Program-made: the position numbers and the translations under genes
Notes under the pieces: generated by a model
Database searches by the model: none
What the model was told of the DNA's origin: nothing
The model's input: the letters and a program-made list of their open reading frames with translations, nothing else
Assembly (NCBI GenBank): GCA_965219685.1
Contig: CBDCOH010000002.1
Location: forward strand, 4,096,001-4,160,000
Length of the DNA stretch: 64,000 bases
Direction of reading: 5' to 3'
Source of the DNA: Candidatus Spongiisociaceae bacterium
GTDB lineage: Bacteria; Actinomycetota; Acidimicrobiia; Spongiisociales; Spongiisociaceae
Shown: positions 1,168 through 51,952 of the stretch, one piece after another
How positions within the stretch are numbered: the first letter of the stretch is position 1
How the letters are laid out: the number at the start of each line of letters is the position of its first letter

Positions 1168-2124
1168 GTGGTAGGAGCCATGGAATACGTCACCGTCGGC
1201 GTTTCCGACCTGGACGAGTCGGTCCGGCTCTTCCGAGATGTGATGGAACTCGACGTGGAATCGGAGTACGTTCCGTCTGTACAGCTGCTGTCCCTGTGGG
1301 GGGTGGAGGGCATCGAGGGGGCACGGGTAGTGGAGTTGTCGTGTTCCGGCTATCCGGTGGGACGGCTTCGCCTGCTTGCCACAACCCCGCCCCGCACCGT
1401 CCGCGTACGCGACGATCACGGCGGCCCCGACACAGCCACCGATGTGGGGGTCAAGGCGATCGACTTCTACGTGCGGCCACCGATCAGGCACTGGATCGAC
1501 ACGCTTGAGAACGCCGGCTGCCGGGCGCGTTCGGAGCCCATACGCTGGGAGATCGGGACGGTGGAGAGCGAGGAGATCAACATCTCCGGTCCGGACGGTT
1601 ACCCGATGCTGCTGATGGTGGCCTGGCGCCATCCGGAGGCCTTCCGTCGCAGGTTCGACGCGGCAAAGCCGTTCAGCGAGGTAGCCACCACCTCGGTGGT
1701 GTGCGGAGACCTGGACGCCAGCCGGCACTTCTACGGCGAGGTGCTCGGACTCACCAAGTTCACCGACGACGAGGTCGAGGACGAGTACCGGGAACTGGCC
1801 GACACGCTGACCGGCGTGCCTTCCGGGACCCGCGTCCGTTTGATCCTCTACGGGGCCGAAGGCGAACCGAGCGGGAAACTTCTCCTCGTCCACTTCTACG
1901 AGGCGTCGGTGCGGAGGCTGGAAGGCCGGATGCGTCCCTATCATCTGGGGGTGGCGATGTTCACCCATACGACGGGCGATCTCGAGGCTCTGCATCGTCG
2001 GGTTCTCGCTTCGGGGTACCCGGTACTCGCGGGTCCTGCCGAGGTTCCTGAGTACCGGGGTCGGGTGATGGTCATGGCCGGACCCAACGACGAGTTGTTC
2101 GAGATCATCGAAGCGGCCGGTTGA
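1168..2124 (+). CDS. Two-domain VOC (glyoxalase-like) protein
   Basis: VTVGVSDLDESVRLFRDVM; DLDASRHFYGEVLGL; GPNDELFEIIE; GGAGG before GTG1168 (ATG1180 alternative). Confidence 0.85.
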   Translation: MVGAMEYVTVGVSDLDESVRLFRDVMELDVESEYVPSVQLLSLWGVEGIEGARVVELSCSGYPVGRLRLLATTPPRTVRVRDDHGGPDTATDVGVKAIDFYVRPPIRHWIDTLENAGCRARSEPIRWEIGTVESEEINISGPDGYPMLLMVAWRHPEAFRRRFDAAKPFSEVATTSVVCGDLDASRHFYGEVLGLTKFTDDEVEDEYRELADTLTGVPSGTRVRLILYGAEGEPSGKLLLVHFYEASVRRLEGRMRPYHLGVAMFTHTTGDLEALHRRVLASGYPVLAGPAEVPEYRGRVMVMAGPNDELFEIIEAAG

Positions 2125-3872
2125 CAGCCATTTCGCAGCCGGGAAGGAGCCTCCGACAGATGGAAATCAAACGCCGTTACGTCTACGCAGGAGACCGCAG
2201 GGTGCACTACCGCCGGGCCGGCTCCGGACCGCCGCTCGTGATGCTGCATGCCTCGCCGGGCAGTTCCTACGTGCTCGAACCGTTGATCGCTCTGCTGGCC
2301 GGTTCGAGGACCGTCATCGCCATAGACACGCCCGGATACGGGGAGTCGGAGGGCCTGGGGATCGACGAACCCGAGATCGACGCCTTTGCAGTTGCTCTGG
2401 TCGACACCCTGGACGCCCTTGGGCTTGGAAGGTTCGACCTCTACGGAACGCATACCGGCTCGAAGATCGCGGTCGAGTTCGCGGGCAACAACCCCGGACG
2501 GGTGCGGCGCCTGGTGCTGGACGGGATCGGCGCCTACACGCCCGAGGAGAGAGCCGACCTGCTCGCCAACTACACCATCGACCTCTCGCCCGAATGGGAC
2601 GGCACGCACCTGATCCGGGCCTGGGCGATGCGGCGCGACATGCACATGTTCTGGCCCTGGTTCAGCAGGGACGGTGACCACCGCATGCCGATGGACATCC
2701 CGTCCGCCGACGAGATGCACGACCACTTCGTCGACTTCCTGAGGGCCATCCCCGACTACGGGAAGGCCTATCGAGCCTCGTTCCGCTACAACGTCCCGCA
2801 AGGAATGGGCCGCCTCACCATGCCTACGCTCATGATCGCCCTCCCCGCCGATCCCCTTTACCAGTACCTGGCGGGCGGCGCCGATCTCGGGGACCACGTG
2901 ACCGTGGAGACAAGCGCAACCGACGTGGGGAGGCTTGCCGAACTCACCGCCCACTTCCTGGGCGAGGGTGGCCAACTCCCGGACGCGTCCCCGGAGACCG
3001 AGCCCGAGGCGGTGCCGGGCTCCCTGCGGCGGCGCTTCGTCGAGGTATCGATAGGGGCTCTCCACGTCCACTGGAGCAGTGGGGAAGGCCGACCCCTCGT
3101 GATGCTTCATGCCTCCCCGACTTCGGCGCGGAATCTGGATCCGCTGACCGCGCGCTTTGCCGCCATGCGACCGGTGATTGCATTCGACAATCCCGGCAAC
3201 GGGGACTCGTCGGCGGTACCGGGCGAGCCGGAGATCGCCGATCTCGCCGAGGTGCTCGTGGAAGGGCTCGACGCGCTGGGAGTGGGAGACTTCGACCTGT
3301 ACGGTTCGCACACCGGGGCGCACATCGCCATCGAGATGGCGATCAGCCAGGGTTCCCGCGTCTCAGGCCTGATCCTCGACGGGATCATCCCCTACGAGGA
3401 GTCCCAGGCCCGGGAGTGGCTTGACCGGTACCCGCCGCCCATGGTTCCGGACCGCCACGGGAGCCACCTGGTTTGGGCGTGGAACTTCATGCGGGACCAG
3501 GTGGTCTTCTGGCCGTGGTTCTCCCAGAAGGCTGAGAATGTCCGCCACGGTGCCTCCATGCCCGACCCGGAAGTGCTCCACGACCGGGTTCTCGAGATGC
3601 TGAAGGGGGGCCGCACCTATCACCATCAGTACGCGGCCGCCTTCCGCTACCGAACCCAGGAGAGACTCCCGCTGGTCGGCGTTCCGACGCTGGTTTGCGC
3701 CGGCCCCACCGACCCGCTGCTGGAGCACCTCGCGGCGGTTCCCGACATCCTGCCCGAGGCCGAGGTGCTGGCCCACCCGGGGCTGGCGACCGCGACCGAT
3801 GCGGACGACACCGTTTTCGAGTTCGTCCGGTTCCTCTCTCCGGAGCGGCTGGTCGTTGACCATGTCGGATAG
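2121..3872 (+). CDS. Tandem (two-domain) alpha/beta hydrolase-fold protein
   Basis: Two repeats of LVMLHASP..D(T/N)PG.G.S..YG(T/S)HTG..FWPWF; start may be ATG2160. Confidence 0.9.
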   Translation: MTAISQPGRSLRQMEIKRRYVYAGDRRVHYRRAGSGPPLVMLHASPGSSYVLEPLIALLAGSRTVIAIDTPGYGESEGLGIDEPEIDAFAVALVDTLDALGLGRFDLYGTHTGSKIAVEFAGNNPGRVRRLVLDGIGAYTPEERADLLANYTIDLSPEWDGTHLIRAWAMRRDMHMFWPWFSRDGDHRMPMDIPSADEMHDHFVDFLRAIPDYGKAYRASFRYNVPQGMGRLTMPTLMIALPADPLYQYLAGGADLGDHVTVETSATDVGRLAELTAHFLGEGGQLPDASPETEPEAVPGSLRRRFVEVSIGALHVHWSSGEGRPLVMLHASPTSARNLDPLTARFAAMRPVIAFDNPGNGDSSAVPGEPEIADLAEVLVEGLDALGVGDFDLYGSHTGAHIAIEMAISQGSRVSGLILDGIIPYEESQAREWLDRYPPPMVPDRHGSHLVWAWNFMRDQVVFWPWFSQKAENVRHGASMPDPEVLHDRVLEMLKGGRTYHHQYAAAFRYRTQERLPLVGVPTLVCAGPTDPLLEHLAAVPDILPEAEVLAHPGLATATDADDTVFEFVRFLSPERLVVDHVG

Positions 3873-5805: not shown

Positions 5806-6213
5806 GTGGATCCTGAACTGAGAGAAGCGATCGAGAAGATCCATACTCCGGCCGGGTGGGTCCATCTGGCCACGATCGGTCCCGACGGCAGTCCACATGT
5901 TGCGCCGATGATGATGGGACTGGGCGACGGGTGCCTCCTGTTCAGCCTCACGGGCAAGCAGAAGAAGCGCAATCTCGAGCGCGACCCGCGGGCCACGGTG
6001 TCGCTGGCTCAGACCGGCACGCTGGCGCATGTGATCGCCTGGGGTTCTGTCGAGATGCGCCACGATGACGAGGCCCACGGTCTCTGGGCGGACATGATCA
6101 AGGACGCCTTCGGTGACTCCGGCTACGTCGACCGGAAGCGTCCGTTGAGCCTGGAGGGAACCAGTCTGGGCGTCATGACGGTGGCCCGTCACCGGGTGTA
6201 CGGCATCGAGTGA
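5806..6213 (+). CDS. PPOX-class (pyridoxamine 5'-phosphate oxidase-like) F420/flavin-binding protein
   Basis: LATIGPDGSPHVAPM, KKRNLERDPRATVS. Confidence 0.85.
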   Translation: MDPELREAIEKIHTPAGWVHLATIGPDGSPHVAPMMMGLGDGCLLFSLTGKQKKRNLERDPRATVSLAQTGTLAHVIAWGSVEMRHDDEAHGLWADMIKDAFGDSGYVDRKRPLSLEGTSLGVMTVARHRVYGIE

Positions 6214-7013
6214 CCGTCGCGGTTCGCAGGGCATACGCGGACTCCCGCCACGGGCAACTGCACTATCGAGTCGCCGGAGCGAAAGGCACCGACGGTACTC
6301 CCCTGATGTGTTTCCACCTGAGTCCCGTGTCCGGCATCATCTACGAGAGGCTGCTGTCCGAGATCGGGAAGGACCGGCTGGCGGTGGCGCCCGACAATCC
6401 CGGCTTCGGAGGCTCCGATCCACCCTGCTCGCCTCCCACGATCGGTGACTATGCCGCGGTGATGGGGGAGTTCGCCGACTCGTTGGGGCTGGGATCGGTG
6501 GACGTGATCGGCTACCACACGGGTGCCAAGATCGGCATCGAACTCTCGCTGCAGCGGCCCGAGTTGGTGCGCAAGCTGGTCCTGGTCTCGACTCCCGTCT
6601 ACACCGAGGAGGAACTGGCCCGCCAGCACGCGACGCTCGGCAAGCCGAGTTGGTTCGACGAGGGAGGCGCCCACCTTCTGGAGGTGTGGGACGGTCACTG
6701 GGAGTGGCGCGGACCCGGCCAGACCATCGAGATGGTCCACCAGACGGTGGCCGAGGTCTTCCGGGCCGGTAGCAGGACCTGGTGGGGCCATCGGGCGGCC
6801 TTCGAGTACCGGATGGGCGACCGGCTCCCGCTGGTCACCCACCCGACCTTGGTCCTGTGCCCGCACGACGACCTTCTCGAGCCCACGAGACGTTCCGAGC
6901 CGCTCATCCGCAACGGACGCCTCCTCGAACTGCCAGGTTGGGGTCACGGCATGATGGACGTCCACACCGAGGACTTCGCCTCCATTGTCAGGGGGTTTTT
7001 GGACAACGGCTAA
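6210..7013 (+). CDS. Alpha/beta hydrolase-fold protein
   Basis: GQLHYR, FHLSP, DNPGFGGSD, GYHTG elbow, GWGHG. Confidence 0.9.
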   Translation: MTVAVRRAYADSRHGQLHYRVAGAKGTDGTPLMCFHLSPVSGIIYERLLSEIGKDRLAVAPDNPGFGGSDPPCSPPTIGDYAAVMGEFADSLGLGSVDVIGYHTGAKIGIELSLQRPELVRKLVLVSTPVYTEEELARQHATLGKPSWFDEGGAHLLEVWDGHWEWRGPGQTIEMVHQTVAEVFRAGSRTWWGHRAAFEYRMGDRLPLVTHPTLVLCPHDDLLEPTRRSEPLIRNGRLLELPGWGHGMMDVHTEDFASIVRGFLDNG

Positions 7014-13033: not shown

Positions 13034-13068
13034 CCAACCCCCAACACCCAACACCCAACACCTAACTA
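13034..13068. repeat. Heptamer array CCAACAC-like x5
   Basis: ccaaccc ccaacac x3 ctaacta; contains the minus-strand stop. Confidence 0.85.
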
Positions 13069-13901
13069 TTCCGGATGAACCTGTCGACGATCTCCACGAA
13101 TTCCACGGGATATTCGTCCGCCACGTCGACCCCCGCTCCGAGCATGGGAGCGAAATGGCCGTCGGCGAACAGTCCGGCCCCCGTCGTACGGTTGTCCTCC
13201 CAGAAGTGATCCCGGTTGCCGCAGATCACCAGGGTCGGAGCAGTCACTCGTTTTGCGACCTCGACCTCGTCGGTCCTGCCGATGACGTGGTACGCGTGGT
13301 ACCACTCGGGTCCTACCTGGAGCCGTGCTATCAAGGTGCGGCGGGCGATGTCGCTGTTGTAGGCCAAGCGATCCCCGGGCTCGGCAAGCATCTCGCTCAT
13401 GTCCCAGCGGGTGATCCAGGCCCGCAGCACCTCCTTGCCTTCCCGGTCGTAGGTGCGGGGCTTGGCGTTGCTCATGTATTGGCGGTTGATGAAGTCGAAG
13501 TGCTCGTTCTTCTCCGGGATCTGGGGGAAGCCGTAGAAGAGCAGGTGGGTTACCCGGTCCGGGTAGTCGGCAGCCATCCAGAGAGCCACGGTTGCGCCGA
13601 AGTGATGGCCCAGCACGGCATAGCGGTCCATTCCGAGGAGGCGGGTGACCTCGTCGACGCGGCGCGCGAACTCGGGCCCGTCGGGCTGGGTGGGGGCCGG
13701 GTCCGACTGGCCGTGACCCGGTATGTCGATGGCCACGGCCCGGTAGCCGACCCGTGCGAACAGGGGAAGCACGGCTTCCCACATGCTGGCCGCGTCCGAA
13801 GTCTGGTGGAGCAGTATGAGCGGTGTTCCCTCTCCGCTCGCCAGGTAGTGAACCTGTCCCTGGTCGGTGTCTACGTAGCCCTTCCGCATGCCCATGGCCA
13901 C
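13062..13901 (-). CDS. Alpha/beta hydrolase-fold protein
   Basis: GQVHY, LLHQT, DIPGHGQSD, GHHFG elbow. Confidence 0.9.
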   Translation of the reverse strand: MAMGMRKGYVDTDQGQVHYLASGEGTPLILLHQTSDAASMWEAVLPLFARVGYRAVAIDIPGHGQSDPAPTQPDGPEFARRVDEVTRLLGMDRYAVLGHHFGATVALWMAADYPDRVTHLLFYGFPQIPEKNEHFDFINRQYMSNAKPRTYDREGKEVLRAWITRWDMSEMLAEPGDRLAYNSDIARRTLIARLQVGPEWYHAYHVIGRTDEVEVAKRVTAPTLVICGNRDHFWEDNRTTGAGLFADGHFAPMLGAGVDVADEYPVEFVEIVDRFIRNS

Positions 13902-20190: not shown

Positions 20191-20203
20191 GGCCGGCCCG
20201 CTC

Positions 20204-34879: not shown

Positions 34880-35007
34880 CAGCCAGGAGTCCTTTCCGCT
34901 CGGCGCCCCGGACGATATCAGCGGCGGATGGCACCCCGGCTCCTGATGTCGAGGTTCGGATCCCCGGTCCGCGGTCGAGACTCACACGCCAAACGGCCTC
35001 GGCCGGG

Positions 35008-36240: not shown

Positions 36241-36284
36241 CGGACTTCCGGTTATGGTGACCGAAGAAGCCCCGGGGAGCGAGG

Positions 36285-38092: not shown

Positions 38093-38604
38093 GCCGGGTC
38101 CACGAGGTCTCGATCATGGTCAACGGCGTCCGGGAGACAGCCGTCGTGTCCTCGAGGGCCACGCTGGCCGACCACATCCGTCACGGGCTCGGTCTCACGG
38201 GTACCCACGTCGGCTGCGACGAGGGCGTATGCGGGGCCTGCACGGTGCTGCTCGACGGGGAGCCGGTCCGGTCCTGTCTCGTCCTGGCGGTCCAAGCCAC
38301 CGGCCGCCGGGTGGAAACGGTCGAGGGTCTGGCGCCCGGCCGCGCCTCCCTCCATCCCCTGCAGGAGGCGTTCCGCACCGCGCACGGACTCCAGTGCGGG
38401 TTCTGCACGCCGGGCATGCTGATGAGCGCCACCGCGCTCCTGGAACGCCACCCGGATCCGGACGAGGACCTGATCCGCGAGGCGATGGCGGGCAACCTGT
38501 GCCGGTGCACCGGCTACCAGCAGATTATCGACGCGATCCGCCTCGGCGCCGAACTTCTGGCCCGACCGGATCGTGATCGGGGAGGGGAGAAGGGGAAGAC
38601 ATGA
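38089..38604 (+). CDS. Molybdenum hydroxylase 2Fe-2S subunit (CoxS-like)
   Basis: GCDEGVCGACTV, QCGFCTPG, NLCRCTGY. Confidence 0.95.
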   Translation: MSRVHEVSIMVNGVRETAVVSSRATLADHIRHGLGLTGTHVGCDEGVCGACTVLLDGEPVRSCLVLAVQATGRRVETVEGLAPGRASLHPLQEAFRTAHGLQCGFCTPGMLMSATALLERHPDPDEDLIREAMAGNLCRCTGYQQIIDAIRLGAELLARPDRDRGGEKGKT

Positions 38605-41030: not shown

Positions 41031-41773
41031 TGCCAGACGTTGTCGGATACCGGGCCAAGTTCGGGGTGATCGTGCCGTCCACCAACACGGTTGTCGAGCA
41101 CGACTTCAACATGATCGGGCCGCGCGGTGTCACGTTCCACACCGGCCGCATGTACATCGAGGTTCCCACCCTCGACTCCGACGAGACGTTCCTGGCTCTG
41201 ATCGGCCAGATTCGCGACTCGATCTCGGTGGCGGTCCGGGACGTGCTCACCTGCCGTCCCGACTACATGGTGATGGGGATGTCGGCGGAGACCTTCTGGA
41301 ACGGGGTGGAGGGCAACCGGCGTTTCGAGGCCCGCATCAGGGACGCCACCGGCCTGGAGTTGAGCACGGGGGCCACCAGTTGCCGGACCGCTCTGGAACT
41401 GCTGGGAGTCGAGCGGATCGCCGTCCTCACCCCCTACCAGCCGGTCGCCGACCGGGAGGTGGCCCGGTTTTTCGCCGAGGCCGGATTCTCGGTGAGGAGG
41501 GCGGAGGGCCTCAAGTGCCCGACGGCCACTTCCATCGCCGAGGTCACGCGGCCCAGGCTGATCGACGTGTTGCGGGACCTTGACGGAGAGGATGTGGACG
41601 CCATCGTCCAGGCGGGCACCAACCTGTCGATGGTGCGCCTGGCCGCCGAGGCCGAGGAATGGCTGGGCAAGCCGGTCATCGCCATCAATGCCGCCACCCT
41701 CTGGCACGCCCTGCGGACGAACGGGTTCGACGACCGCTTCGAGGGGTTCGGTTCGCTACTCGCCGAGCACTAG
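41030..41773 (+). CDS. Maleate isomerase/arylmalonate decarboxylase-fold protein
   Basis: GVIVPSTNTVVEHD, IAVLTPY, GKPVIAIN; AGGAGG upstream. Confidence 0.88.
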   Translation: MPDVVGYRAKFGVIVPSTNTVVEHDFNMIGPRGVTFHTGRMYIEVPTLDSDETFLALIGQIRDSISVAVRDVLTCRPDYMVMGMSAETFWNGVEGNRRFEARIRDATGLELSTGATSCRTALELLGVERIAVLTPYQPVADREVARFFAEAGFSVRRAEGLKCPTATSIAEVTRPRLIDVLRDLDGEDVDAIVQAGTNLSMVRLAAEAEEWLGKPVIAINAATLWHALRTNGFDDRFEGFGSLLAEH

Positions 41774-41775
41774 GT

Positions 41776-41803
41776 TGGTGATTGGTGAATGGTGAATGGT
41801 GGT
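41776..41803. repeat. Heptamer array TGGTGAA-like x4
   Basis: tggtgat tggtgaa tggtgaa tggtggt just after the stop. Confidence 0.8.
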
Positions 41804-41980
41804 GACTCTGGAGGGTACTCGACTGCCGTGCCAGGACCGACCACGATGAGCCAGGTGTCGTAACCGTTTACGGGCAACTGGCAAGTTGGTGGCGTGCGTT
41901 ACCCCCGGATATCGCGGCCATACGGAAAGAGATTCGGGCTACGCTGGACTTTGGCGGCGGGTTGGCGGAACGGAGGCCCA

Positions 41981-42637
41981 ATGACCGACGGTATCGATCT
42001 GAACGCCGACTACGAGGCGGCCGGATTCAAGCGGAGCCTCGAGCCGGGAGAGCACCCGGCGCTCCTCGTCATCGACTTCGTAAATGCCTATCTCGACCGG
42101 ACCTCGCCCTTGTACGCGGGCGTGGAGGAGGCTCTGGATTCCGCGGTCCGCGTGCTTGCCGCGGCCCGGAAGAGTGCCACACCGGTGGTCTACACCAAGG
42201 TGGTCTACACGCCGGGCGGGGTCGACGGCGGCATCTTCTACCGCAAGATCCCGGTCCTGGAGGTGTTCGACGCCGGATCCCCGCTTGGCGAGATACCCGA
42301 CGAACTCGCTCCCGCAACGGACGAGATCGTCATATACAAGCAGTACGCAAGCGCCTTCTTCGGCACCTCGCTGGCTTCCACGCTGACTGCCCTCGGTGTC
42401 GACACCGTCGTGATCGTGGGCCTGTCCACGAGCGGGTGTGTCAGGGCATCCGCCGTGGACGCCATGCAGTACGGCTTCATACCGATCGTGGTGGCCGATG
42501 CGGTCGGTGATCGAGACCCGAGGCCACACGAGGCCAACCTGTTCGACCTGCAAGCCAAGTACGCGGAGGTGGTGACCGAGGACGACGCCATCAAATACCT
42601 CTGGTCTGTCCGTGCCACTATCCACCAGCCACAATGA
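41981..42637 (+). CDS. Isochorismatase-family amidohydrolase (NicF/CSHase-like)
   Basis: Asp-Lys-Cys triad: VIDF, KQYASAFFGT, STSGCVRAS. Confidence 0.9.
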   Translation: MTDGIDLNADYEAAGFKRSLEPGEHPALLVIDFVNAYLDRTSPLYAGVEEALDSAVRVLAAARKSATPVVYTKVVYTPGGVDGGIFYRKIPVLEVFDAGSPLGEIPDELAPATDEIVIYKQYASAFFGTSLASTLTALGVDTVVIVGLSTSGCVRASAVDAMQYGFIPIVVADAVGDRDPRPHEANLFDLQAKYAEVVTEDDAIKYLWSVRATIHQPQ

Positions 42638-43539
42638 CGAGCGGCATCCTCATCACCAAGCAGTTGGGCGCCACCATGGCGGTTCCCAACCCTGCCCGCA
42701 CGGCGGACGCGCTGGCCGGGGCCTTCGAGTGGAGGATCCGCGATACGGGCGACCTGGCGGAGCGTTGGTCCTCGCTCGAGATCCCGGAGCCCGACTCGAT
42801 CATCATGGGTCCGCCGGAGGCAACCCGCGGGCTGGTCCGCTTGGTCCGGACGGCGGACGGGGAGGAACGCGGTCGGCTTCCCCGCGCCTGGTCCTCGGTG
42901 GAGCCGGTGGTGCGCGACCTCGACCGGCTGGTGGCGGAACTCGACCGGCACCCGGACTTCGAGCTCACCAGCCCCGGGATCGAACTCGACATGCGGGACC
43001 ACGGGAGCAACATCCACGAGGCAGCGGTCGCGCGGCTGCATGACTGCCTGTTCGTGCTGACCATGGCCGTTACCCAGCCCGCCGAGCGAGACTTTCCCGA
43101 GTCGCCCTCCCGGGTCGGCCACATCTTCGCTTCCCATCTCCGGTCGACCGAGGCCGATGCAGCCCGGCGTCTCTACTCGGAAGTGTTCGGCATGCGTCCG
43201 CTCATGGTGGTGGAAGGCCACGACACCTTCATCCACCAGTTCTGGGGCGTCGACAGCCGCTACCCGGTGCGGGTCGATGTGTTGCAAGGGGTCACAGAAG
43301 GACTCGGGCTTGGAGCTGTGGAGGTCCAGTCATGGCCCCGCGGCTACCTCGGCCGCTACGTGACCGAGCCGGTCCCGCCCGGGATCGCCGCCGTCACCTA
43401 CCAGGCACCCGACCTCGGAGCCGCCCGCTCTGCGGTCGCCCGGGCCGGGATTACGGTGGTGGGCGAGGACCCGGAGGGTTTCATCGTGCGCGGAGCGGAA
43501 GGCGAGCTTTTCGAGGTCACGTCGACGGATTGGGTCTGA
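42634..43539 (+). CDS. Two-domain VOC protein
   Basis: GLVRLV, LYSEVFGM, PPGIAAVTY, GAEGELFEV. Confidence 0.78.
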   Translation: MTSGILITKQLGATMAVPNPARTADALAGAFEWRIRDTGDLAERWSSLEIPEPDSIIMGPPEATRGLVRLVRTADGEERGRLPRAWSSVEPVVRDLDRLVAELDRHPDFELTSPGIELDMRDHGSNIHEAAVARLHDCLFVLTMAVTQPAERDFPESPSRVGHIFASHLRSTEADAARRLYSEVFGMRPLMVVEGHDTFIHQFWGVDSRYPVRVDVLQGVTEGLGLGAVEVQSWPRGYLGRYVTEPVPPGIAAVTYQAPDLGAARSAVARAGITVVGEDPEGFIVRGAEGELFEVTSTDWV

Positions 43540-43557
43540 GGGCGGATCCGGACCGGC

Positions 43558-44481
43558 TCAACGGAACTCCGGTATCACCTCTGCGGCGAACTGCTCGATG
43601 GCCTCGAGGTCGAAGGGCGGCCGGTTGCCGAACACGTTCAGGTTGATCTGGTCCGCTCCGGCGTCGCGGTACGCGGCCACCTGCTCGATCACCTCGTCCA
43701 CCGTCCCCAGCAGCACCTCGCCGGGGCGCAGGTAGGAGGCGTCGATCAGCTCCCGGTAGGCGTTCGCCTCTGCAGGGGTGGTACCCATGTAGAACCCCAC
43801 GTTGATGGCCCTGTCGACAAGCCATGGGTGGCGTCCCTCCATCTCGAGCGCTTCCTGAAGCCGCCGGATGCGGGCTGCGTACTCGGCCGGGGTCATGTTG
43901 TTGCCGTTGTAGACGTCGGCGTACCGGGCCGCGATCGGGACGAGGCGGCGCATGCCCTTGCCGCCGATCCACAGCGGGATCCGGTGCTGGGCCGGCCGCG
44001 GGGTCAGCTTGGCCTTCTCGACGCGGAAGTAGCGTCCCCGGAACGTGAAACCTTTGCGATGGAGAAGGCCCGGCACGACGATGCATGCCTCTTCGAGCTG
44101 GTCGAGGCGTTCCCGCGCGGAGGGGTACCGGTAACCGAAGGCCGTGTACTCGGCTTCCATGGCGCCCGTGCCGAGGCCGAGCTCGACCCGTCCGTGGCTC
44201 CATCGGTCGATCGTGGCAACCGCCTTGGCTATCAGGCTGGGTGACCGGAAGCCCACCGCCCACACCAGGCAGCCGATCCGGATCCGGGTGGTCTCGAGTG
44301 CCAGAGCCGTGAGGGTCGCAACCGGCTCGTAGCAGACTGGCGATCCGTCGCCACGGGGGATCGGGTAGAAGTGATCCGACGTGAAGATCGTGTCGAACCC
44401 GACCTCCTCAGCCAGCCGCCAGACGTTGACCAGATCCTCCAGCGAGCACTCCTGCTGTCCCGTATGTAGCCCGAACCGCAT
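43558..44481 (-). CDS. LLM class F420-dependent oxidoreductase
   Basis: GFDTIFTSDHF, GRVELGLG, PLWIGGKG. Confidence 0.92.
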   Translation of the reverse strand: MRFGLHTGQQECSLEDLVNVWRLAEEVGFDTIFTSDHFYPIPRGDGSPVCYEPVATLTALALETTRIRIGCLVWAVGFRSPSLIAKAVATIDRWSHGRVELGLGTGAMEAEYTAFGYRYPSARERLDQLEEACIVVPGLLHRKGFTFRGRYFRVEKAKLTPRPAQHRIPLWIGGKGMRRLVPIAARYADVYNGNNMTPAEYAARIRRLQEALEMEGRHPWLVDRAINVGFYMGTTPAEANAYRELIDASYLRPGEVLLGTVDEVIEQVAAYRDAGADQINLNVFGNRPPFDLEAIEQFAAEVIPEFR

Positions 44482-44561
44482 CGATCGGCCTCCTCGTTAT
44501 TCCGTGGCGAATCCCTGAGAGGGGGGTTCCTACTATCAGTTATTCAGGGTACGTTAGGTGT

Positions 44562-44768
44562 ATGGAGGCCATCTCGGATTGGATCACCCCGGGGATCGTT
44601 GTCGCCGTGTCGAGCATGTTCTGGCGGCGCCTTGTGCGAATCGAGCATCGGTTCGATCGTTCGGAGGATCGTTTGGACGTCCTGACGCGAGGTGTGGCGG
44701 CCAACGGCGTGGCCATCGCTCGGCTCGAAGGTCGTCACCAAGGTCACCCGATCGCCACCGCCGAGTAG
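44562..44768 (+). CDS. Small TM plus coiled-coil hypothetical protein
   Basis: N-terminal hydrophobic helix then RFDRSEDRLD..IARLEG. Confidence 0.6.
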   Translation: MEAISDWITPGIVVAVSSMFWRRLVRIEHRFDRSEDRLDVLTRGVAANGVAIARLEGRHQGHPIATAE

Positions 44769-44810
44769 CCCTGCCGTCGAGGTCCGGCCCGGCAGTCCTG
44801 AACAGGCCCT

Positions 44811-45761
44811 CTACGGAACCACCACAACCCGGCCGCGGCCGCCCACGGCGGCATAGCCGGCAGCCATCTCCTCGATCGGAACGGTCAGCCGGACGATCGG
44901 CTTGAGGACGCCATGGGAGATATCGTCGAGCACCTCGGAGATGACCTCCTGGTAGCGGCCCGGCGGCGCCTGGTAGGCATGGAACCCCATGAGGCGGTGC
45001 TGGCGGATCATCGTGAGCGGGATGGTGAACTCGGAGTTCCTGCCGGCGCTGTACCCGATCAGCAGGTGGCGTGCCTTGGGAGCCCCGCACAGGATGGCGG
45101 CGTTCAGGTAGGGACCGCCTAGCGGGTCGATGATCACCTGCGCCCCCTTGCCGCCGGTGGTGGCCATGACTTCCCCGGTCAGGTTCTCAAGAGATACGGG
45201 GACGGCGTCCAGATCGTCCAGCGCCGACGTGTCGCGGGCCGCAGCCAGAACGGTTGCGCCGAAGGCGGCGGATATCTGGCAGGCGGCCCGACCCACCGAA
45301 CCTGTGGCTCCCAGCACCAGGACCGTTCCGTCGGGCCGCAGGCGCCCGTAGTCGAACAGGGCTTGGCGCGCCGAGATGCCACCGCTCACGCCGGCGGCCG
45401 CAAGCATCGGGTCGACCGCCCCGGGGATCGGCACGGCGGCCTCGTCGGGTACCGAGACCTGCTCCGCGGCCATTCCCGGCCTGCTGTTCCCCAGGCCGAA
45501 CGGTCCCCCGCCGACGTATACGAGTTGGCCGGGTTCGAACCTTGCCGAGCTTCGGACCCGACCCACGCCCGTTGCCCCGGGCTGGATGGGGAGAGGACCG
45601 GCGCCGGGCAGCATGCCCATGGCGATCTGGCGGTCGAGCGGAGCGATCTCCGCGGCGATCACGTCGATCAGGGTCTCACCGTCACCTGGTTCCGGCGGGT
45701 TGGTCTCGCTCACCGCCGGACCGGGCGGGTCGGTGAACTCGTGGATTCTCACAGCGCGCAT
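44811..45761 (-). CDS. MDR-family NADPH:quinone oxidoreductase-like protein
   Basis: MRAVRIHEF, VLVLGATGSVG, TGGKGA; GAGG upstream. Confidence 0.88.
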   Translation of the reverse strand: MRAVRIHEFTDPPGPAVSETNPPEPGDGETLIDVIAAEIAPLDRQIAMGMLPGAGPLPIQPGATGVGRVRSSARFEPGQLVYVGGGPFGLGNSRPGMAAEQVSVPDEAAVPIPGAVDPMLAAAGVSGGISARQALFDYGRLRPDGTVLVLGATGSVGRAACQISAAFGATVLAAARDTSALDDLDAVPVSLENLTGEVMATTGGKGAQVIIDPLGGPYLNAAILCGAPKARHLLIGYSAGRNSEFTIPLTMIRQHRLMGFHAYQAPPGRYQEVISEVLDDISHGVLKPIVRLTVPIEEMAAGYAAVGGRGRVVVVP

Positions 45762-45855
45762 TCCGGTACCTCCTCTGTAGTAGTGGCCCCGCCTGCGAGA
45801 CGATCCGGCGTGCCCTGCGAGGAACGCCGCTTCCGGCCCATGCCACACCGGTCCT

Positions 45856-47328
45856 TCACGGGTGGGTCACATGCGTGGGCCGGCGGACGAAGCGACCCCT
45901 GCGCCCTCCGGTGATCTGCCCGTCGGCGAGGACCTGCTGTCCGCGCAGGAACACGTCCTTGACCCGCCCGGTGAGTTCGTGCCCCTCGAAGGGGGTGTAC
46001 TCCTGGGCTGACTCGGAATCGGCCGCGCTGACCACGAACGACCTGTCCGGGTCGAGCACCACGAGGTCGGCGTCCATACCCGGGGCGATGTCCCCCTTTC
46101 GGTGCAGTCCGAAGCGGCGGGCGGGGTTGGCGCTGACGAGCTCTGCGACCCGGTTGGGAGACAGCCCTCGCTTGGTCCCCTCGCCGAACACTCCGGAGAG
46201 CAGGTATTCGGCCCCGCCGAATCCCGCCTTGGCCAGGAACACGTCGTCGCGGTCGGAGGGTGAGAACTTCATCTCGTCGAGGCAGCAGGCATGGTCGGAG
46301 ACCACCCAGTCCACGTTTCCCTCCAGCACGTGGCTCCAAAGGGCCTCGCGGTCGGCCTCGCTCCGCAGCGGCGGGTTGACCTTGCCGCCCAGCCCGCTGG
46401 CGGTGTCGTAGGTGGTCAGCAGGTGGCCCACGGTCACCTCGCGCCGGAAGTCGATATGGTCGAAGGTTGTCGCCATCAGCATGGCCGCTTCGAGTGCCTT
46501 GGCCGACGACAGGTGTAGGAGGTTGATGGTTGCCAACCCGGTCTCGTGGGCGAGGTAGGAGGCGACGGTCACCGCCAGGCCCTCCGAGTGGGGAGGCCTG
46601 GAGGCGCTGTAGGCCTCCAGGCCGGACAGGGTTGGGTCCCGTTCGACCCTTTCCGTGTAGGCGCGCATTATCTCCGCCGTCTCGCAGTGCAGGGAGAGGC
46701 TGATGCTGTCGGCGATTCCCGGGAAGCGTTCCCGAGCAGCCTGGATTCCCCGCATGACCACTTCGAAGTGGGCTACGTCGTACGATTCCCCCTCTGGCGT
46801 CATCAGAAACGAACGCTGGTCCGATGACTTGCCGTGGAGGCCGTGCCCGCCGTAGAACATGAAGATCTTGAAGGAGGGGATCCCGAAGTCCTCGATGATC
46901 GACGGGATCTCCTCGACATGATGGAGCATCATCGGCGCCACGTGGAAGCTGTAGTCGACGTGGGTGCGCCCTTCCGCCATATCCAGCGCCGCCGGTAGGA
47001 ATTCTGTGTAGGGGCCTCCCCGGTTCAGGTAGTACTGGCCGGTCCGGATATATGTGATGCCGGTCGTCACGCCACCCTGCGCGCATGCCCGGCTCTCGGT
47101 GGCTGCGTCGATATCGAGCGGGTTGTAGATTCCCCAATGCTGGTGGGTGTCCACCACACCCGGGAACACCATCAGGCCGCCGGCGTCATGGACGGGGGAG
47201 CCCGACGGGTCGATACCGGGCTCGATGCGGGCGATCTTCCCGGCTCTCACGGCCACGTCCAGGTGCTCCACGCCGGTTCGGAAAGGCCGGACGACCCTCC
47301 CGTTCTTAATGACCAGATCGTAAGACAC
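45856..47328 (-). CDS. Cyclic amidohydrolase (allantoinase/dihydroorotase-like)
   Basis: DTHQH, SFKIF, LHCE, LHLSS, SDHA, NPARRFGL. Confidence 0.92.
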   Translation of the reverse strand: MSYDLVIKNGRVVRPFRTGVEHLDVAVRAGKIARIEPGIDPSGSPVHDAGGLMVFPGVVDTHQHWGIYNPLDIDAATESRACAQGGVTTGITYIRTGQYYLNRGGPYTEFLPAALDMAEGRTHVDYSFHVAPMMLHHVEEIPSIIEDFGIPSFKIFMFYGGHGLHGKSSDQRSFLMTPEGESYDVAHFEVVMRGIQAARERFPGIADSISLSLHCETAEIMRAYTERVERDPTLSGLEAYSASRPPHSEGLAVTVASYLAHETGLATINLLHLSSAKALEAAMLMATTFDHIDFRREVTVGHLLTTYDTASGLGGKVNPPLRSEADREALWSHVLEGNVDWVVSDHACCLDEMKFSPSDRDDVFLAKAGFGGAEYLLSGVFGEGTKRGLSPNRVAELVSANPARRFGLHRKGDIAPGMDADLVVLDPDRSFVVSAADSESAQEYTPFEGHELTGRVKDVFLRGQQVLADGQITGGRRGRFVRRPTHVTHP

Positions 47329-47378
47329 CCCGGTGTCCCCTTTCGCCTCGGTCGGGCCGAACTCGCTGTGAAACTAGT

Positions 47379-48752
47379 ATGTGCCGATACCCGCCGCCGA
47401 ATCGGCACCTCCCATCGAACGGGGCCCCGTGCAGATCCTCCGAAGGAAGAACCGACCGAGACTCGACCCGACATCGGCGAGGTCGAGCGATTAGGTCCGC
47501 CGGGAGTGGTCAGGAGACCGGTCGCCTGCCTGTGCTCTGGGCGTTCCGGCACCGGAACTTCACGGTGCTGTGGAGTTCGATGCTCTTCTACCGTCTCGGC
47601 TTCTGGGTGGGCTCGATCACCTTCCAGTGGATGGTGGCTCGCATCACCGGCAACAGCCCGTTGATGCTGGGGCTGCTGGCCTTTTTCAACCTGATCCCGA
47701 TGCTGGTCGTGACTCCGATCGGGGGCGTGGTGGCCGACCGGGTGGGTCGCGCCCAGATCCTGGTGGTCTCCCAGTTCTTCATGAGTGCGGCCGCCGGACT
47801 GCTGACCCTGATGGTGGTGCTGGGCCGGGGTGAGTCCGTGGTGGTGTTGTTCGCTTTCGCCTTCGTGTTCGGGGTGGTGCTGTCCTTCAGCGCTCCGGCC
47901 AACCAGGCCGCGGTCGCCAACTCGGTTCCCCAAACCGACCTGAGAAGCGCTATCTCCCTCAACTCGATCGGCCTCAACCTGGCCAGGATCGCAGGGCCCG
48001 CGCTGGCTGGGCCGGTCATTCTGGCGTGGGGCGCCGGCGCCAGCTTCGGGTTGTGGGCGCTGGTCAGCGTGCTGGCCGCGGTGGGGATCTCGACCATCAC
48101 CCTGACTCCCTACGAACCCGAGACGGACTCCCTCGGCGTGGCGCAGCGGATCCTTCAGGGTTTCGACCACGTCCGGGCCCGGCCACCTGCCCTTCTGGCG
48201 CTGACGCTGGTCGCGGTCCTGACGATCTTCGGACAGTCCTATTCGGCCGTTGTGGCCGTCATCGCGTTCGACACCCTCGGCCTGGGCGATCGGGCTTTTA
48301 CATTGCTGGTGACCGCCACCGGCGTCGGAGCGATGGTGGGTGCGCTGGCAGCGGGAACCGGCCGGTTGCCCTCGAGCCTCCCCCGTCTTGCAATCTGGAC
48401 GGTCGGCTTCGCGCTGGCACAGGCTGCCCTCGGAATGTCCCGCTCCCTTGGGGCGGCTCTGGTCTTCATCTGCCTCGTGGGGGGTCTGAACTTCTTCCTG
48501 ATGACCTCCCTCAACGTTCTGCTGCAGCATCTCACCGCCGAATCCAAGCGCGGGAGGATCATGAGCCTGTTCATGCTGGCGTGGGGTGGGCTCTATCCGA
48601 TCGGGGGTCTTGCCGTCGGTTTCGTCGGAGAGCGTATCTCGGTCCCCACCACCCTGGTCGTGTTCGCGGCCGTGCTCACCGTGCTCAGCCTGATGATCGG
48701 TTGGGCGGCCCGGTCAGCGGCTCGAAGCGCCCGTACCGGTCCTTCCCCCTGA
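47379..48752 (+). CDS. MFS transporter
   Basis: FRHRNF, GGVVADRVGR, NLARIAGP, RGRIMS; true start probably later (e.g. GTG47532). Confidence 0.9.
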   Translation: MCRYPPPNRHLPSNGAPCRSSEGRTDRDSTRHRRGRAIRSAGSGQETGRLPVLWAFRHRNFTVLWSSMLFYRLGFWVGSITFQWMVARITGNSPLMLGLLAFFNLIPMLVVTPIGGVVADRVGRAQILVVSQFFMSAAAGLLTLMVVLGRGESVVVLFAFAFVFGVVLSFSAPANQAAVANSVPQTDLRSAISLNSIGLNLARIAGPALAGPVILAWGAGASFGLWALVSVLAAVGISTITLTPYEPETDSLGVAQRILQGFDHVRARPPALLALTLVAVLTIFGQSYSAVVAVIAFDTLGLGDRAFTLLVTATGVGAMVGALAAGTGRLPSSLPRLAIWTVGFALAQAALGMSRSLGAALVFICLVGGLNFFLMTSLNVLLQHLTAESKRGRIMSLFMLAWGGLYPIGGLAVGFVGERISVPTTLVVFAAVLTVLSLMIGWAARSAARSARTGPSP

Positions 48753-49019
48753 GCGCGGCCTTAGCTCGCGAAAACCGCCGGCAGCGACTCCATCGCAGGG
48801 CCCGCCCCCGCCACCACCCATCCTCGAGATCGGACGCGCTCCGCGAAGCCCGCCCTATGTGAGCGCGCCCGAGTGAACTGATCCCACCGGCGGCCGGATG
48901 ACGTCCCGTCCAGACTGGCCGGGTGTTTGCTAACACTCATAGTGCAGGACGGCTGTGACAGTTGCAACCCCTTCGCCGCGACTTGTTTCGCGCCCCGGCG
49001 CTCCGCCTGCCGACCCTGC

Positions 49020-49967
49020 TCAGGAGGGTCGGCAGTAGAGATCGCGCAGTCTGGGATCCAGCCAGGCGTACAGGATGTCGACCGCCGTGTTCAGCACGAG
49101 AAAGAAGGTTGCGAGGAACAGGGTCGCTCCGGTGGCCACCGGAATGTCCTGGTTCCGGAGGGACTGCACCAGCAGCCTGCCGACGCCCGGGATCGTGAAT
49201 ACGGTCTCGACGATGACCGTGCCGCTGATTAGGACTCCCACCATCAGGCCTATGACCGTTGCCGTCGGTAGGACGGCATTGGGCAGCGCCACCTGCCGCA
49301 TCACCTTGGGCTCGGCCAGCCCGGCGGAACGTCCGAACGTCACGTAATCGCGCTGGAGGGCGTCCCGCATCGAGACCTGGAGGGTCCGGGAGACCAGCGC
49401 CACCGTGGCCAGACCGAGCACCGATGCAGGCAGGACCAGGTGAAGGAGATTGCCGGTGGGGTCCTCGGTGAACGGGACCCATCCGCCGGCAGGGAGCACG
49501 TCCGGTACATACAGCCCGAACACCATCAGCAGCAGCAGCCCGAGCCAGAAGCTCGGAACGGACACACCGACAACCGTGGCCACCCGTACGGCCACCTCGC
49601 CGAACCGGCCCCTCCGGGCGGTCGTGTAGAGGCCCAGTCCCAGACCCATCGACGTTGCGACGGCGGCGGTCACGAGCGCGAGTTCGAGGGTGGGGCCGGC
49701 CCTGTCTGCAACCAGGCCGGTGACCTTGGCGCCGCTCAGCCACGATCGTCCCAGGTCGCCCTGCACCAGGGCGGACATGTATCGCCCGTACTGGACGACC
49801 AGCGGCTGGTCGAGGCCCAGTTCACGGGCATCGAGACCGCCGAAGATCATCGCCACGTTTCCGGGTGTCAGGGAGATGAGCAGGAACACGAGGGTCGCCA
49901 CCGCCCAGAGCACCAGCACCGACGTGACCAGCCGTCTGAAGATGAAACGCCAGATCAACCCGTCCAC
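49020..49967 (-). CDS. Peptide/nickel ABC permease (DppB-like), paralog of 15047 gene
   Basis: LGLDQPL, DVLPAGGW, DYVTFGRSAGL, VETVFTIPGVG; start inferred. Confidence 0.9.
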   Translation of the reverse strand: MDGLIWRFIFRRLVTSVLVLWAVATLVFLLISLTPGNVAMIFGGLDARELGLDQPLVVQYGRYMSALVQGDLGRSWLSGAKVTGLVADRAGPTLELALVTAAVATSMGLGLGLYTTARRGRFGEVAVRVATVVGVSVPSFWLGLLLLMVFGLYVPDVLPAGGWVPFTEDPTGNLLHLVLPASVLGLATVALVSRTLQVSMRDALQRDYVTFGRSAGLAEPKVMRQVALPNAVLPTATVIGLMVGVLISGTVIVETVFTIPGVGRLLVQSLRNQDIPVATGATLFLATFFLVLNTAVDILYAWLDPRLRDLYCRPS

Positions 49968-50022
49968 TACGTCTGGCTCGTGGACCGAACCGAAAGCCCG
50001 CTCTCGGGGAGGGCGGTCTGCA

Positions 50023-51102
50023 TCAGTCGTGCCGTTCGTTCTGGTTCCTGCGTTCCGCCCAGCACTTGGCCTCGACCGGGCCGACACCCGTGAAGTCCTC
50101 CATCCGCTCGCTCACCGCGAACATGGTCACCCCGAGATCCAGGTAGCGGGAGAACCACCGGCGGAACCGGTCGGGATCCGGTGCCCCGGTGAGGGTGAAG
50201 GCCGGGGCGATGTCGGCCTTGGCCATCCTGGCTGCCTCCTTCCGGGCGCCGGCCGCCGCCAAGCGGCGCACCTCCATGGCCTCCGACCACAAGTCGCCGT
50301 GCTTCCAGAGGGACTCGAACCCCGGGTGCGAACAATGGAGGACGATGTTCTCCAGCCACGATCGCCGCCGCGCCCTCAGGAAGGAGTCTTCGACATCGGT
50401 CAGGAAGTGGGTCTCGACGCACACCTCGAAGCCGTCGAGCGACCGGTCGTTTCCGGCCGCCCCCTCCCGGATCCTCTCCCACGCCCACCTGACGTAGGCT
50501 GCCGAGGCGTGCTCGAGGATCACGCCGTCCGCCCAAGCCCCGGCGATCCGCAGCATCATCGGTCCGACCGCGGCGATGTAGATCGGCGGCGTCCGGTCGG
50601 GGATCAGGTCCAGGGTCGCTCGCCGGACGTGGATGGTCCTCCCCTCGTATCGCACGGCTCCGGATGGTCCTCGTTCGATGCCGGGGATCTCCTCGCCGAA
50701 CAGGGCGCGGTAAAGCTTGATGCTGTCCTCCATGCGGGCCGCCGGGCGCTTGAACTCAAGGCCCATCACGTCCTCGACCATGTAGGGCATCGAGGCGCCC
50801 AACCCCAGGGAGAACCTGCCATTCGAGACAGCGTCGACCCAGGCCGACCCGGATGCCAGCAGGGTGGGGGAGTGGCCGAAGACTCCCATGATCCGGGAGT
50901 TCACCTCCACACGGGTCGTTGCCTGGGCGATGAGGGTGAGACCGGGGAAGAGTTCGCTTCGTCCGAAGTCGGCAAGGCATACGATGTCGAATCCGGCCTC
51001 TTCCTGGGCGACGGCGGTGGCGACCACACTATCGGGTGTGATCCTGCCTTCCCACCCTGGGATGGTGAAGTGGTTGGCCTGGGTGGCGAATCGGACTTTC
51101 AC
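50023..51102 (-). CDS. LLM class oxidoreductase
   Basis: NGRFSLGLG, PIYIAAVGPMMLRIAGAWADG; start inferred at GTG51102. Confidence 0.85.
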   Translation of the reverse strand: MKVRFATQANHFTIPGWEGRITPDSVVATAVAQEEAGFDIVCLADFGRSELFPGLTLIAQATTRVEVNSRIMGVFGHSPTLLASGSAWVDAVSNGRFSLGLGASMPYMVEDVMGLEFKRPAARMEDSIKLYRALFGEEIPGIERGPSGAVRYEGRTIHVRRATLDLIPDRTPPIYIAAVGPMMLRIAGAWADGVILEHASAAYVRWAWERIREGAAGNDRSLDGFEVCVETHFLTDVEDSFLRARRRSWLENIVLHCSHPGFESLWKHGDLWSEAMEVRRLAAAGARKEAARMAKADIAPAFTLTGAPDPDRFRRWFSRYLDLGVTMFAVSERMEDFTGVGPVEAKCWAERRNQNERHD

Positions 51103-51178
51103 AGGGGCCGAGACCGCCTTGCGCGGGACCACGAGTGTACATTCCGGGGTCGTACCCCAACCCGGCCGGGAGGAGAGC

Positions 51179-51952
51179 GTGGAACGCCGAATCATCAACA
51201 CGAGCCTGGGGCAGACCCATGTGGTCGTCGCCGGCCCCGACGACGCTCCTACTGTGGTGCTCCTGCACCAGACTCCCCGCTCGACCGACGAGTACGCGGA
51301 GGTGATGCCCCTGCTGTCCGACACCTTGCGGGTGGTCGCCATCGACACTCCCGGGTACGGGGCCTCCGACCACCCGCCGGCCCCTCCCAGCATGGGGGAT
51401 TACGCCGCGGTCGTGGCCGACGTGCTGTGGGCGCTGTCCAGCGGTCCCGCCTACGTCTGCGGCCACCACACCGGAGCGATCATCGCGGTCGAGTTCGGGG
51501 CGGCTTATCCGGAGTTGACCCGCAAGGTCATCGCTTCGGGGCTGATCTGGGTCGACGACGAGGTACGAGCCGACCTGGGTCCGCGGTTCAAACAGTGGAC
51601 GGTACAGGCCGACGGGTCACACCTGACGGCGCATTGGGAGCGCCTGTCCTACTGGACCTCTCCCGACACAGCCCTCACCCAACGTCTGCTGCTCGATGTC
51701 TACCGGGCCGGCGAGACCAGCGAGTTCGGTCACTGGGCGTGTCTGGAGTACGACATGGAAGCCCGCTTGCCACTGGTGGGGAGCCCTGTCCTGATCCTCA
51801 CGGGTAGGGATGATCCGTTCGTCACACCCCCGCAGATCCAGCGGTTGACCGCGGCCCTCCCGGACACGGAGGTCTCCTACATCGATGGCAGCGTCTTCCT
51901 GCCCAACGAGAACCCCGAGGGCTTCGCCGGCGCGATCCTCTCGTTCATATGA
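51179..51952 (+). CDS. Alpha/beta hydrolase-fold protein
   Basis: LLHQTPRS, DTPGYGASD, GHHTG, DGSHL..W. Confidence 0.9.
   Translation: MERRIINTSLGQTHVVVAGPDDAPTVVLLHQTPRSTDEYAEVMPLLSDTLRVVAIDTPGYGASDHPPAPPSMGDYAAVVADVLWALSSGPAYVCGHHTGAIIAVEFGAAYPELTRKVIASGLIWVDDEVRADLGPRFKQWTVQADGSHLTAHWERLSYWTSPDTALTQRLLLDVYRAGETSEFGHWACLEYDMEARLPLVGSPVLILTGRDDPFVTPPQIQRLTAALPDTEVSYIDGSVFLPNENPEGFAGAILSFI

Follow-up and report, generated by a model that had tools for sequence, protein, structure and literature searches.

Four genes in the stretch of Candidatus Spongiisociaceae DNA analysed here (the window: 64,000 nucleotides, positions 4096001-4160000 of contig C2, GC about 65%) encode five alpha/beta-hydrolase (ABH) domains, and in each of them a histidine stands at the nucleophile elbow. 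The elbow-His family to which they belong is real and conserved, and is a variant of the ABH active site that is undescribed in the literature we searched. The residues that disappear together with the histidine in natural variants of the family suggest a rebuilt active site. We tentatively predict, with something short of even confidence, that this site carries out non-covalent His-Asp acid-base catalysis on intermediates from the breakdown of nitrogen heterocycles (N-heterocycles).

A histidine at the nucleophile elbow

The elbow motifs lie in frame within open reading frames (ORFs) called as Abhydrolase_1/6 in Pfam, and PF00561 scores over its cut-off for all four genes:

2160..3872, plus strand: two-domain His-elbow ABH (GTHTG and GSHTG; His codons start at 2451 and 3309), recognised from Pfam, motifs and homologue alignment; the 2121 gene, after its ORF.
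6210..7013, plus strand: single-domain His-elbow ABH (GYHTG; His codon start 6516), which also has the canonical post-strand-8 His246 (GWGHG), Asp220/221 and cap His194.
13062..13901, minus strand: divergent His-elbow ABH (GHHFG; His codon start 13604) with HQTSD and GKEVLRAW, no GxHL, and Val at the post-strand-8 site; it has few relatives in the sequence set we compiled.
51179..51952, plus strand: single-domain His-elbow ABH (GHHTG, HQTPRS; His codon start 51467), with His96, His184 and Asp211, and Val/Ile at the post-strand-8 site; the protein we modelled.

ATG 2160 is the probable start of the 2121 gene, and GTG 51179, behind an AGGAG site, that of the 51179 gene. Both domains of the former carry HASP, Thr at elbow+1, a cap tyrosine (Tyr205/Tyr492) and an acid after strand 7 (Asp232/Asp519; numbering from 2157), and neither has a post-strand-8 His. 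Across the window, Asp occupies the post-strand-7 position in all five domains, and the post-strand-8 catalytic His is missing in four of five, the 6210 protein alone having one.

The window proteins have the ABH fold with His at the elbow. In alignments, the elbow His falls on the Ser of GWSLG in 4g8c, and GHHTG falls on GHDRG of 3qyj, placing His opposite Asp. For the 51179 protein, the AlphaFold model (mean pLDDT 96.9) is a standard capped ABH fold that matches 2xua with Z 31.6 and an rmsd of 2.1 A over 248 aligned residues; the turn from strand 90-95 to helix 97-108 consists of one residue, His96. The pattern G.H[TFS]G occurs at 10 sites in the six frames of the window, five being these elbows and five lying outside hydrolase ORFs. 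The conservation of the histidine in homologues argues that the elbow His is not there by chance.

The elbow-His family is conserved and widespread

All 120 homologues of the 51179 protein and all 120 of the 6210 protein keep the elbow His, as do 255/255 single-domain database homologues; for the two domains of the 2121 protein it is kept in 89% and 93% of 120 homologues. The genes are intact and under purifying selection (dN/dS 0.07-0.14 against relatives in 9 comparisons covering all four). A close relative of the 51179 gene (85% identity) is present in a Candidatus Spongiisociaceae metagenome-assembled genome, and the host is probably an actinobacterium associated with sponges.

These results bear out the central claim of a first-pass annotation of this DNA, which had read a His at the elbow of all five domains from the sequence. 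The structure prediction and homologue alignment it called for both agree, and neither alignments nor model show another Ser, Asp or Cys at the elbow with an intact triad. It was also right that the 6210 protein alone has a C-terminal catalytic His, a residue found in 99% of that protein's homologues. The H-x-S/T-P and cap motifs that it described are present in four of the five domains, with the cap motif corrected to G-x-H-L-x-x-x-W, that is, with three spacers.

A profile search returned 1,870 clusters at 50% identity with E<=1e-30, a count in which membership is by score and the His was not read in each. Genomes hold up to 17 copies, and even those of 1.3-1.5 Mb hold 3-8. The family extends across Actinomycetota, Proteobacteria, Acidobacteriota, Dehalococcoidia, Rokubacteria, Desulfobacterota and archaea, and the cultured hosts include Bradyrhizobium, Pseudonocardia and Novosphingobium. 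The source genome itself has nine genes of the family, of which seven lie in one region; between them, the nine encode 11 His domains and one Gly-degenerate domain. In a midpoint-rooted FastTree phylogeny of 193 of 309 representatives, His proteins group apart from Ser/Asp members (support 0.90), with one His member (locus L028) falling outside.

Automatic annotation labels these proteins 'pimeloyl-ACP methyl ester carboxylesterase', while no NCBIfam family scores over cut-off for them. Searches of the PDB gave no His-elbow structure among the matches listed, and the ESM Atlas returned generic ABH clusters only. In a 2024 survey of the fold, the section on active-site variation covers Ser, Asp, Cys or nucleophile-less elbows with His after strand 8, and an elbow His is absent from that section (PMC11878206). 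Our literature search, to which subscription papers, supplements and ESTHER were external, returned no description of His-elbow ABHs, of the gene module described below or of bacterial bilin mineralisation.

One locus (L111:1-12202) is a tandem array of nine ABH domains in 12 kb, six of them with the elbow His. Elsewhere, a gene of the His-elbow clade repeatedly adjoins a FAD_binding_4 oxidase gene (C2 1005521-1007945, loci L235, L237 and L232); such pairs are also found outside the main island, and the L237 member reads GSATG.

Residues lost together with the elbow histidine

We surveyed the surroundings of the elbow in 856 His domains (a redundant set). The HG oxyanion motif becomes H-x-S/T. 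At x, where 51 of 58 canonical controls have Gly, most of the domains have Gln, Ala, Leu or Met. Ser/Thr is found at H+2 in 783 of the domains, Thr at elbow+1 in 825, and Asp after strand 7 in 785 (with 51 gaps), and a single cap position is either His (472) or Tyr (296), 768 in total. Among 120 homologues of the 51179 protein, Asp211 after strand 7 is invariant (100%) and the canonical post-strand-8 site is Val (72%), Ile (27%) or Met (1%). The 6210 subtype conserves four histidines (103, 155, 194 and 246).

Two-domain members provide a natural series of losses. Among 149 representatives at 60% identity, 51 keep both elbow histidines, 52 the first only, 28 the second only and 18 neither. We scanned all conserved positions, 98 and 87 in the two domains, and found that the same residues go with the elbow His in both domains: the elbow+1 Thr, the H-x-S-P Ser, the D-T-P-G Thr, the cap Tyr and the post-strand-7 Asp, as well as a Leu two residues past that Asp. 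The counts for His-present versus His-lost domains, whose p-values are overstated since related sequences are not independent, are as follows:

First domain: T100 97/103 vs 21/46; S33 86/101 vs 15/46; T58 75/103 vs 9/46; Y205 83/103 vs 13/46; D232 96/102 vs 19/37.
Second domain: T386 71/79 vs 17/70; S320 62/79 vs 10/70; T345 53/79 vs 7/70; Y492 57/78 vs 14/66; D519 72/77 vs 32/60.

The pattern persists at 45% dereplication (97 representatives). It is confined to the same domain, and the residues are if anything better kept when the partner domain has lost its His. By alignment, the cap Tyr (Y205/Y492) is equivalent to His184 of the 51179 protein and His194 of the 6210 protein. This co-loss pattern points to a functional unit made up of the elbow His, the Asp, the cap Tyr/His and three Ser/Thr residues.

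The GxHLxxxW motif, R160, D161 and H188 are kept regardless of the elbow His; the GxHL His itself is retained in 45/46 and 64/68 domains without an elbow His. The GxHL motif that the first-pass annotation noted is not part of the co-lost set, and a metal site formed by the GxHL and elbow histidines is unsupported. The cap motif is presumably structural or substrate-binding.

Relation to known enzymes of the fold

Judged by defining residues, the family is not a serine hydrolase, an epoxide hydrolase or dehalogenase, HOD/QDO or RutD. It shares the post-strand-7 acid with serine hydrolases and lacks their elbow Ser and, in four of the five window domains, their post-strand-8 His. The elbow Asp nucleophile of epoxide hydrolases and dehalogenases is absent; the cap residues His184, His194, Tyr205 and Tyr492 are conserved and coupled to the elbow His, and may correspond in space to the electrophile-activating cap Tyr/His of those enzymes. 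Matches to the RutD model TIGR03611 reach 27-44 bits against a cut-off of 238.5.

The best sequence matches of the family profile are in the fluoroacetate dehalogenase/epoxide hydrolase/haloalkane dehalogenase group (3qyj Alr0039, E 4e-29; RPA1163; Cif-like 7jqz; DhaA). The likeness extends to a G-x-G-x-S loop, a helical cap and a Tyr aligned to the E-D-Y-R tyrosine of 3qyj. Unlike that group, the family has His for the Asp nucleophile, a replaced HG glycine, Thr after the elbow where the group has Trp/Arg and, in the 51179 subtype, Val/Ile for the post-strand-8 His. The closest folds (Z 28.6-31.6) are the enol-lactonase PcaD (2xua), non-heme haloperoxidases, 3kxp (E-2-(acetamidomethylene)succinate hydrolase) and 4l0c (N-formylmaleamate deformylase), which share the acid after strand 7 and roles in ring catabolism but only 14-23% identity. 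These are Ser-His-Asp enzymes; the title of 4l0c names S94A. RutD, an aminoacrylate hydrolase said to lack a nucleophile and with an elbow that is not His, resembles the family as an ABH in a flavoprotein/isochorismatase pathway of N-heterocycle breakdown and through the weak TIGR03611 matches, which here fall far under cut-off.

Two further groups come close to the chemistry predicted for the family. HOD, QDO and AqdC, which act on N-heteroaromatic substrates, rely on a His-Asp base and can do without the nucleophile; in HOD the dyad takes a proton from the substrate (PMC10548524). They draw this base from the post-strand-8 His, and their elbow is Ser/Ala (PMC10548524), whereas here the His is at the elbow itself and the defining arrangement of HOD/QDO is not found. 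In the hydroxynitrile lyases HbHNL and AtHNL, too, general-base catalysis is non-covalent, and a Thr/Asn at the oxyanion site serves as hydrogen-bond partner; unlike the family, they keep Ser-His-Asp with the post-strand-8 His as base, and in HbHNL the Ser relays (PMC3444685).

The genomic setting of the family

The window is the right-hand part of an island of ~145 kb (C2 about 4.012-4.156 Mb) that makes up 3.3% of the genome. It holds 7 of the genome's 9 His-ABH genes, 4/4 DUF3108-like, 2/2 DUF2269-like membrane and 1/1 DUF3598-like matches, 4/7 bicupins, 13/18 VOC and 9/17 MmgE matches. Within the genus the island is all or none, with 8-12 matches in four of eight genomes and none in the other four. 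Imide- and maleate-type matches in the island are all below equivalog cut-offs. Besides the ABH genes, the window contains:

1168-2124, 3865-4806 and 4803-5720, plus strand: three two-domain VOC/glyoxalase genes, in the same run as the 2121 and 6210 genes.
5806..6213, plus strand: PPOX-class (F420-type) split-barrel protein, overlapping the 6210 start; below NCBIfam cut-off.
7985-8656 (plus strand) and 9612-10319 (minus strand): paralogues of an unnamed DUF3108-like beta protein, flanking a rhodanese gene.
17957..57327: five MmgE/PrpD genes, cupins, two CoA-transferases III and an HMG-CoA-lyase-like gene; also LLM flavoproteins and a peptide-type ABC importer.
41027-41773: maleate-isomerase-like gene.
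41894-42637: isochorismatase-like gene.
45856-47328: allantoinase-like gene.
51949..52374, plus strand: HbpS-like (haem-degrading family) gene, overlapping the 51179 stop; PF03928, E 2.8e-34.
57344-58072: third DUF3108-like copy; all four genome copies lie within the island.

The genes of 17957..57327 would form the lower pathway of the island. The DUF3108-like family has no PDB sequence match and was found in 0/250 other genomes of the class. The genome's only MhuD-type heme oxygenase (C2 4076690-4077034, L090:6690-7034) lies in the island 19 kb before the window and matches 5uq4 at E 6e-28; its start overlaps a PuuE-like gene, behind MmgE and isochorismatase genes. MhuD is present in the four island-bearing congeners, was not found in the four others and is present in two further island-free genomes. 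The island also carries two tandem aldehyde:ferredoxin oxidoreductase genes with a ferredoxin (C2 4079054-4083090). Inserted between its catabolic operons are three PIN-domain toxin-antitoxin-like pairs (7043-7704, 12309-12979 and 24092-25102 of the window), an HNH gene (22711-24069), an AAA/DUF4143 gene (29473-30744) and a PLD-like gene (32879-34879).

A cluster of ~45 kb with the same parts is carried on plasmids of Sphingomonas sp. JE1, Sphingobium sp. TomTYG65 and Novosphingobium resinovorum SA1. It comprises single- and two-domain His-ABHs, VOC, a membrane protein, DUF3108, cupin, FAD oxidases, MmgE, PuuE-like, isochorismatase, racemase/maleate-isomerase-like, LeuCD, HMG-CoA lyase and CoA-transferase genes, to which pJE1 adds an ICL/PEP-mutase lyase and hydantoinase A/B. 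Rare markers of this module were near 0/31 control loci without the elbow His (611 kb, five genomes), a comparison that is a check of specificity and not a blind test, the markers having been picked from His loci. Inside the sphingomonad module, locus L085:3076-5067 has a HapK/RedY-like gene (a prodiginine-cluster family name) accompanied by a methyltransferase-like gene and a small conserved hypothetical.

Another conserved cluster joins a homotrimeric Rieske oxygenase, a LigB dioxygenase, two Ser-type ABHs, an M20-like protein, an amidase and a GHHTG-type ABH. It was seen at loci L043, L074, L040, L067, L072, L073, L078, L080 and L044, in actinobacteria (including Pseudonocardia spinosispora) and Henriciella.

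Co-occurrence was examined in 151 genomes of one gammaproteobacterial order (that of G033, titled Steroidobacteraceae), 78 of which have the family. DUF1838 is present in 66/78 genomes with the family and 0/73 without it, and was never found where the family is absent; CpeT/CpcT bilin-lyase domains are present in 48/78 and 2/73. Genes for both often lie within a few kb of His-elbow ABH genes. Single-domain VOC-ABH fusions occur at three loci and a DUF1838-ABH fusion at one, all closest to the 6210 protein, and some begin with a hydrophobic stretch that by eye resembles a signal peptide. The CpcT-like protein matches the phycocyanobilin lyase 4o4o (E 3e-9). CpcT/CpeT domains occur in 50/151 genomes, up to six per genome, inside catabolic clusters (for example L224:8873-9847).

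DUF1838 proteins (for example L007:7102-7989) have an apparent signal peptide and up to 19 matches per genome. The DUF1838 model (pLDDT 87.8) is a beta-barrel whose best soluble matches (Z 6.2-8.4: BFA1, Rv2717c, CpeS, DUF3598, nitrobindins and CpeT) are mixed with outer-membrane barrels, giving a weak likeness to the nitrobindin/CpeS/CpeT barrels; Foldseek returned matches at TM<=0.32 only. A DUF3598-like profile run against the PDB found only 2o62 (E 0.05).

Discussion

The canonical base is gone in most subtypes, and the Asp is tied to the elbow His, which makes a relocated His-Asp base the simplest reading. The elbow His, probably tuned by the post-strand-7 Asp, would be the general base, with no covalent intermediate; the general acid would come from the opposite face, in the form of the cap Tyr or His. 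The substrate oxygen may, given the co-loss, be held by Ser/Thr hydroxyls in the H-x-S/T-P loop, in the D-T-P-G loop and at elbow+1. The reaction could be water addition, or C-N or C-C cleavage, on lactam, imine or hydroxy-lactam intermediates. HOD and the hydroxynitrile lyases give the fold precedent for non-covalent base chemistry, and the family most likely works like the non-covalent ABH lyases.

The gene context suggests that the family probably serves N-heterocycle catabolism in a broad sense. Downstream enzymes of the island may, going by their family names, carry cyclic imides through alkyl-maleates to central metabolites. Dialkyl-maleimides would be consumed by enzymes of several types, namely imide hydrolases, maleamate-type amidases, maleate isomerases, hydratases of LeuCD or MmgE type and lyases of ICL or HMG-CoA type, and the island's matches to all of these fall below equivalog cut-offs. 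Open-chain tetrapyrroles and their fragments would be the single most likely substrate class, itself a doubtful one, and different ring systems are probably the substrates of other subtypes. When bilins are oxidised chemically, maleimides such as hematinic acid are formed, along with propentdyopents and pyrrole aldehydes (PMC11833878). It is possible, if we speculate to the same degree, that His-elbow ABHs are the core catalysts or pigment-ligating subunits of a widespread bacterial pathway of tetrapyrrole degradation. Bilins from heme, phycobiliproteins or chlorophyll would be imported, passed on with CpcT/DUF1838/DUF3598 barrels and cut to maleimides, and the alkyl-maleates funnelled into central metabolism. 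A pigment hint in the first-pass annotation gains circumstantial support from the gene context. That annotation's non-canonical subfamily stands, with no Ser/Asp/Cys elbow, a separate clade, selection and wide spread; its list of functions (oxygenase, lyase, metal enzyme or ligand carrier) is beyond the resolution of sequence.

Several observations weigh against a His-Asp base acting on bilin-derived rings. Both elbow histidines are missing from 18/149 two-domain representatives, and the 6210 subtype retains the canonical His as well, so that a single mechanism may not suit every subtype. Maleates also lie at the end of pyridine and gentisate catabolism. The genomes in which co-occurrence was counted are kin, and the source genome has no DUF1838 or CpcT match in a profile search, the CpcT profile being weak. 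In the 151 genomes heme oxygenase (5/78 vs 2/73) and HemS (0/78 vs 2/73) do not track the family, and we rejected classical heme oxygenase and HemS as partners; the link to MhuD rests on one lineage. Rare module markers are near only 11/36 non-seed 6210-type metagenome loci (427 kb), 2/8 His loci in the five control genomes and 3/63 loci of 51179 type, and the 51179 subtype is also found in the Rieske, LigB and Ser-hydrolase ring-cleavage clusters and in other amide-catabolic loci. The co-lost His, Asp and cap His/Tyr, moreover, would also fit metal or heme ligation.

Ligation is a serious if rather unlikely alternative, and the one that fares best. The elbow His would be an axial ligand that, with the cap His/Tyr, binds heme, a metallo-tetrapyrrole or a bare metal, with Asp tuning the His, which would make the proteins carriers of pigment or ring-opening enzymes that depend on a metal. 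In its favour, His and Tyr, which alternate at the coupled cap position, are common heme ligands; the four conserved histidines of the 6210 subtype, the CpcT-like, HbpS-like, MhuD, DUF3598-like and DUF1838 neighbours and the signal-peptide-like start of some fusions also fit. However, the three oxyanion-site Ser/Thr residues lost along with the His speak for an oxyanion or hydroxyl site more than for a porphyrin, the GxHL His is uncoupled from the elbow His, and the DUF1838 Z-scores are middling.

Cofactor-free dioxygenation of the HOD/QDO type is less probable. Here His-Asp would deprotonate an electron-rich lactam or enol such as a dipyrrinone, O2 would sit at the oxyanion site, and the bridge would be cleaved to a maleimide and a pyrrole aldehyde, the kinds of product that chemical dipyrrinone oxidation gives (PMC11833878). 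HOD works with a His-Asp dyad, no nucleophile and O2 in the oxyanion hole, but the small Ser/Ala elbow that goes with its post-strand-8 base leaves O2 room (PMC10548524). The bulky elbow His and polar Ser/Thr of the family crowd that site. Aldehyde dehydrogenases, FAD oxidases and imide hydrolases among the neighbours are consistent with such a reaction; HOD and QDO do not appear in the top 50 structural or top 60 sequence matches, a listing of limited depth.

A slightly more remote idea is that the elbow His attacks as a true nucleophile. An imide, N-formyl or carbamoyl substrate would then give a labile N-acyl-imidazole, and unaided hydrolysis of this adduct would explain the possible loss of the canonical base. 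By established chemistry, His ND1 is as many bonds from C-alpha as the OD nucleophile of epoxide hydrolase Asp; the elbow geometry is kept in the 51179 model, and amidase, hydantoinase and isochorismatase neighbours point to amide-rich substrates. Yet replacement of the HG glycine by Gln, Ala, Leu, Met and others implies a remodelled oxyanion site, and His alkylation would be a dead end. We know of no ABH precedent for a His nucleophile. The active-site-variation section of the 2024 survey holds none either (PMC11878206).

That these are ordinary esterases with a misread elbow, or decaying pseudogenes, is highly improbable: the carboxylesterase label and the one degenerate domain of many two-domain members would fit, but alignments and model place no Ser/Cys/Asp at the elbow, NCBIfam matches are far below cut-off, dN/dS is low and the His is invariant in single-domain members.

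The ABH fold is among the best studied, and an elbow His would add to it an arrangement outside the surveyed variants. If a relocated His-Asp base is indeed at work, it would be a catalytic arrangement never described for the fold, and the co-loss set indicates which residues to mutate. Cultured, harmless sphingomonads carry the module, which makes its substrate accessible by growth and transcriptomics. Should that substrate be bilins, bacterial use of tetrapyrrole carbon and nitrogen would become directly testable.

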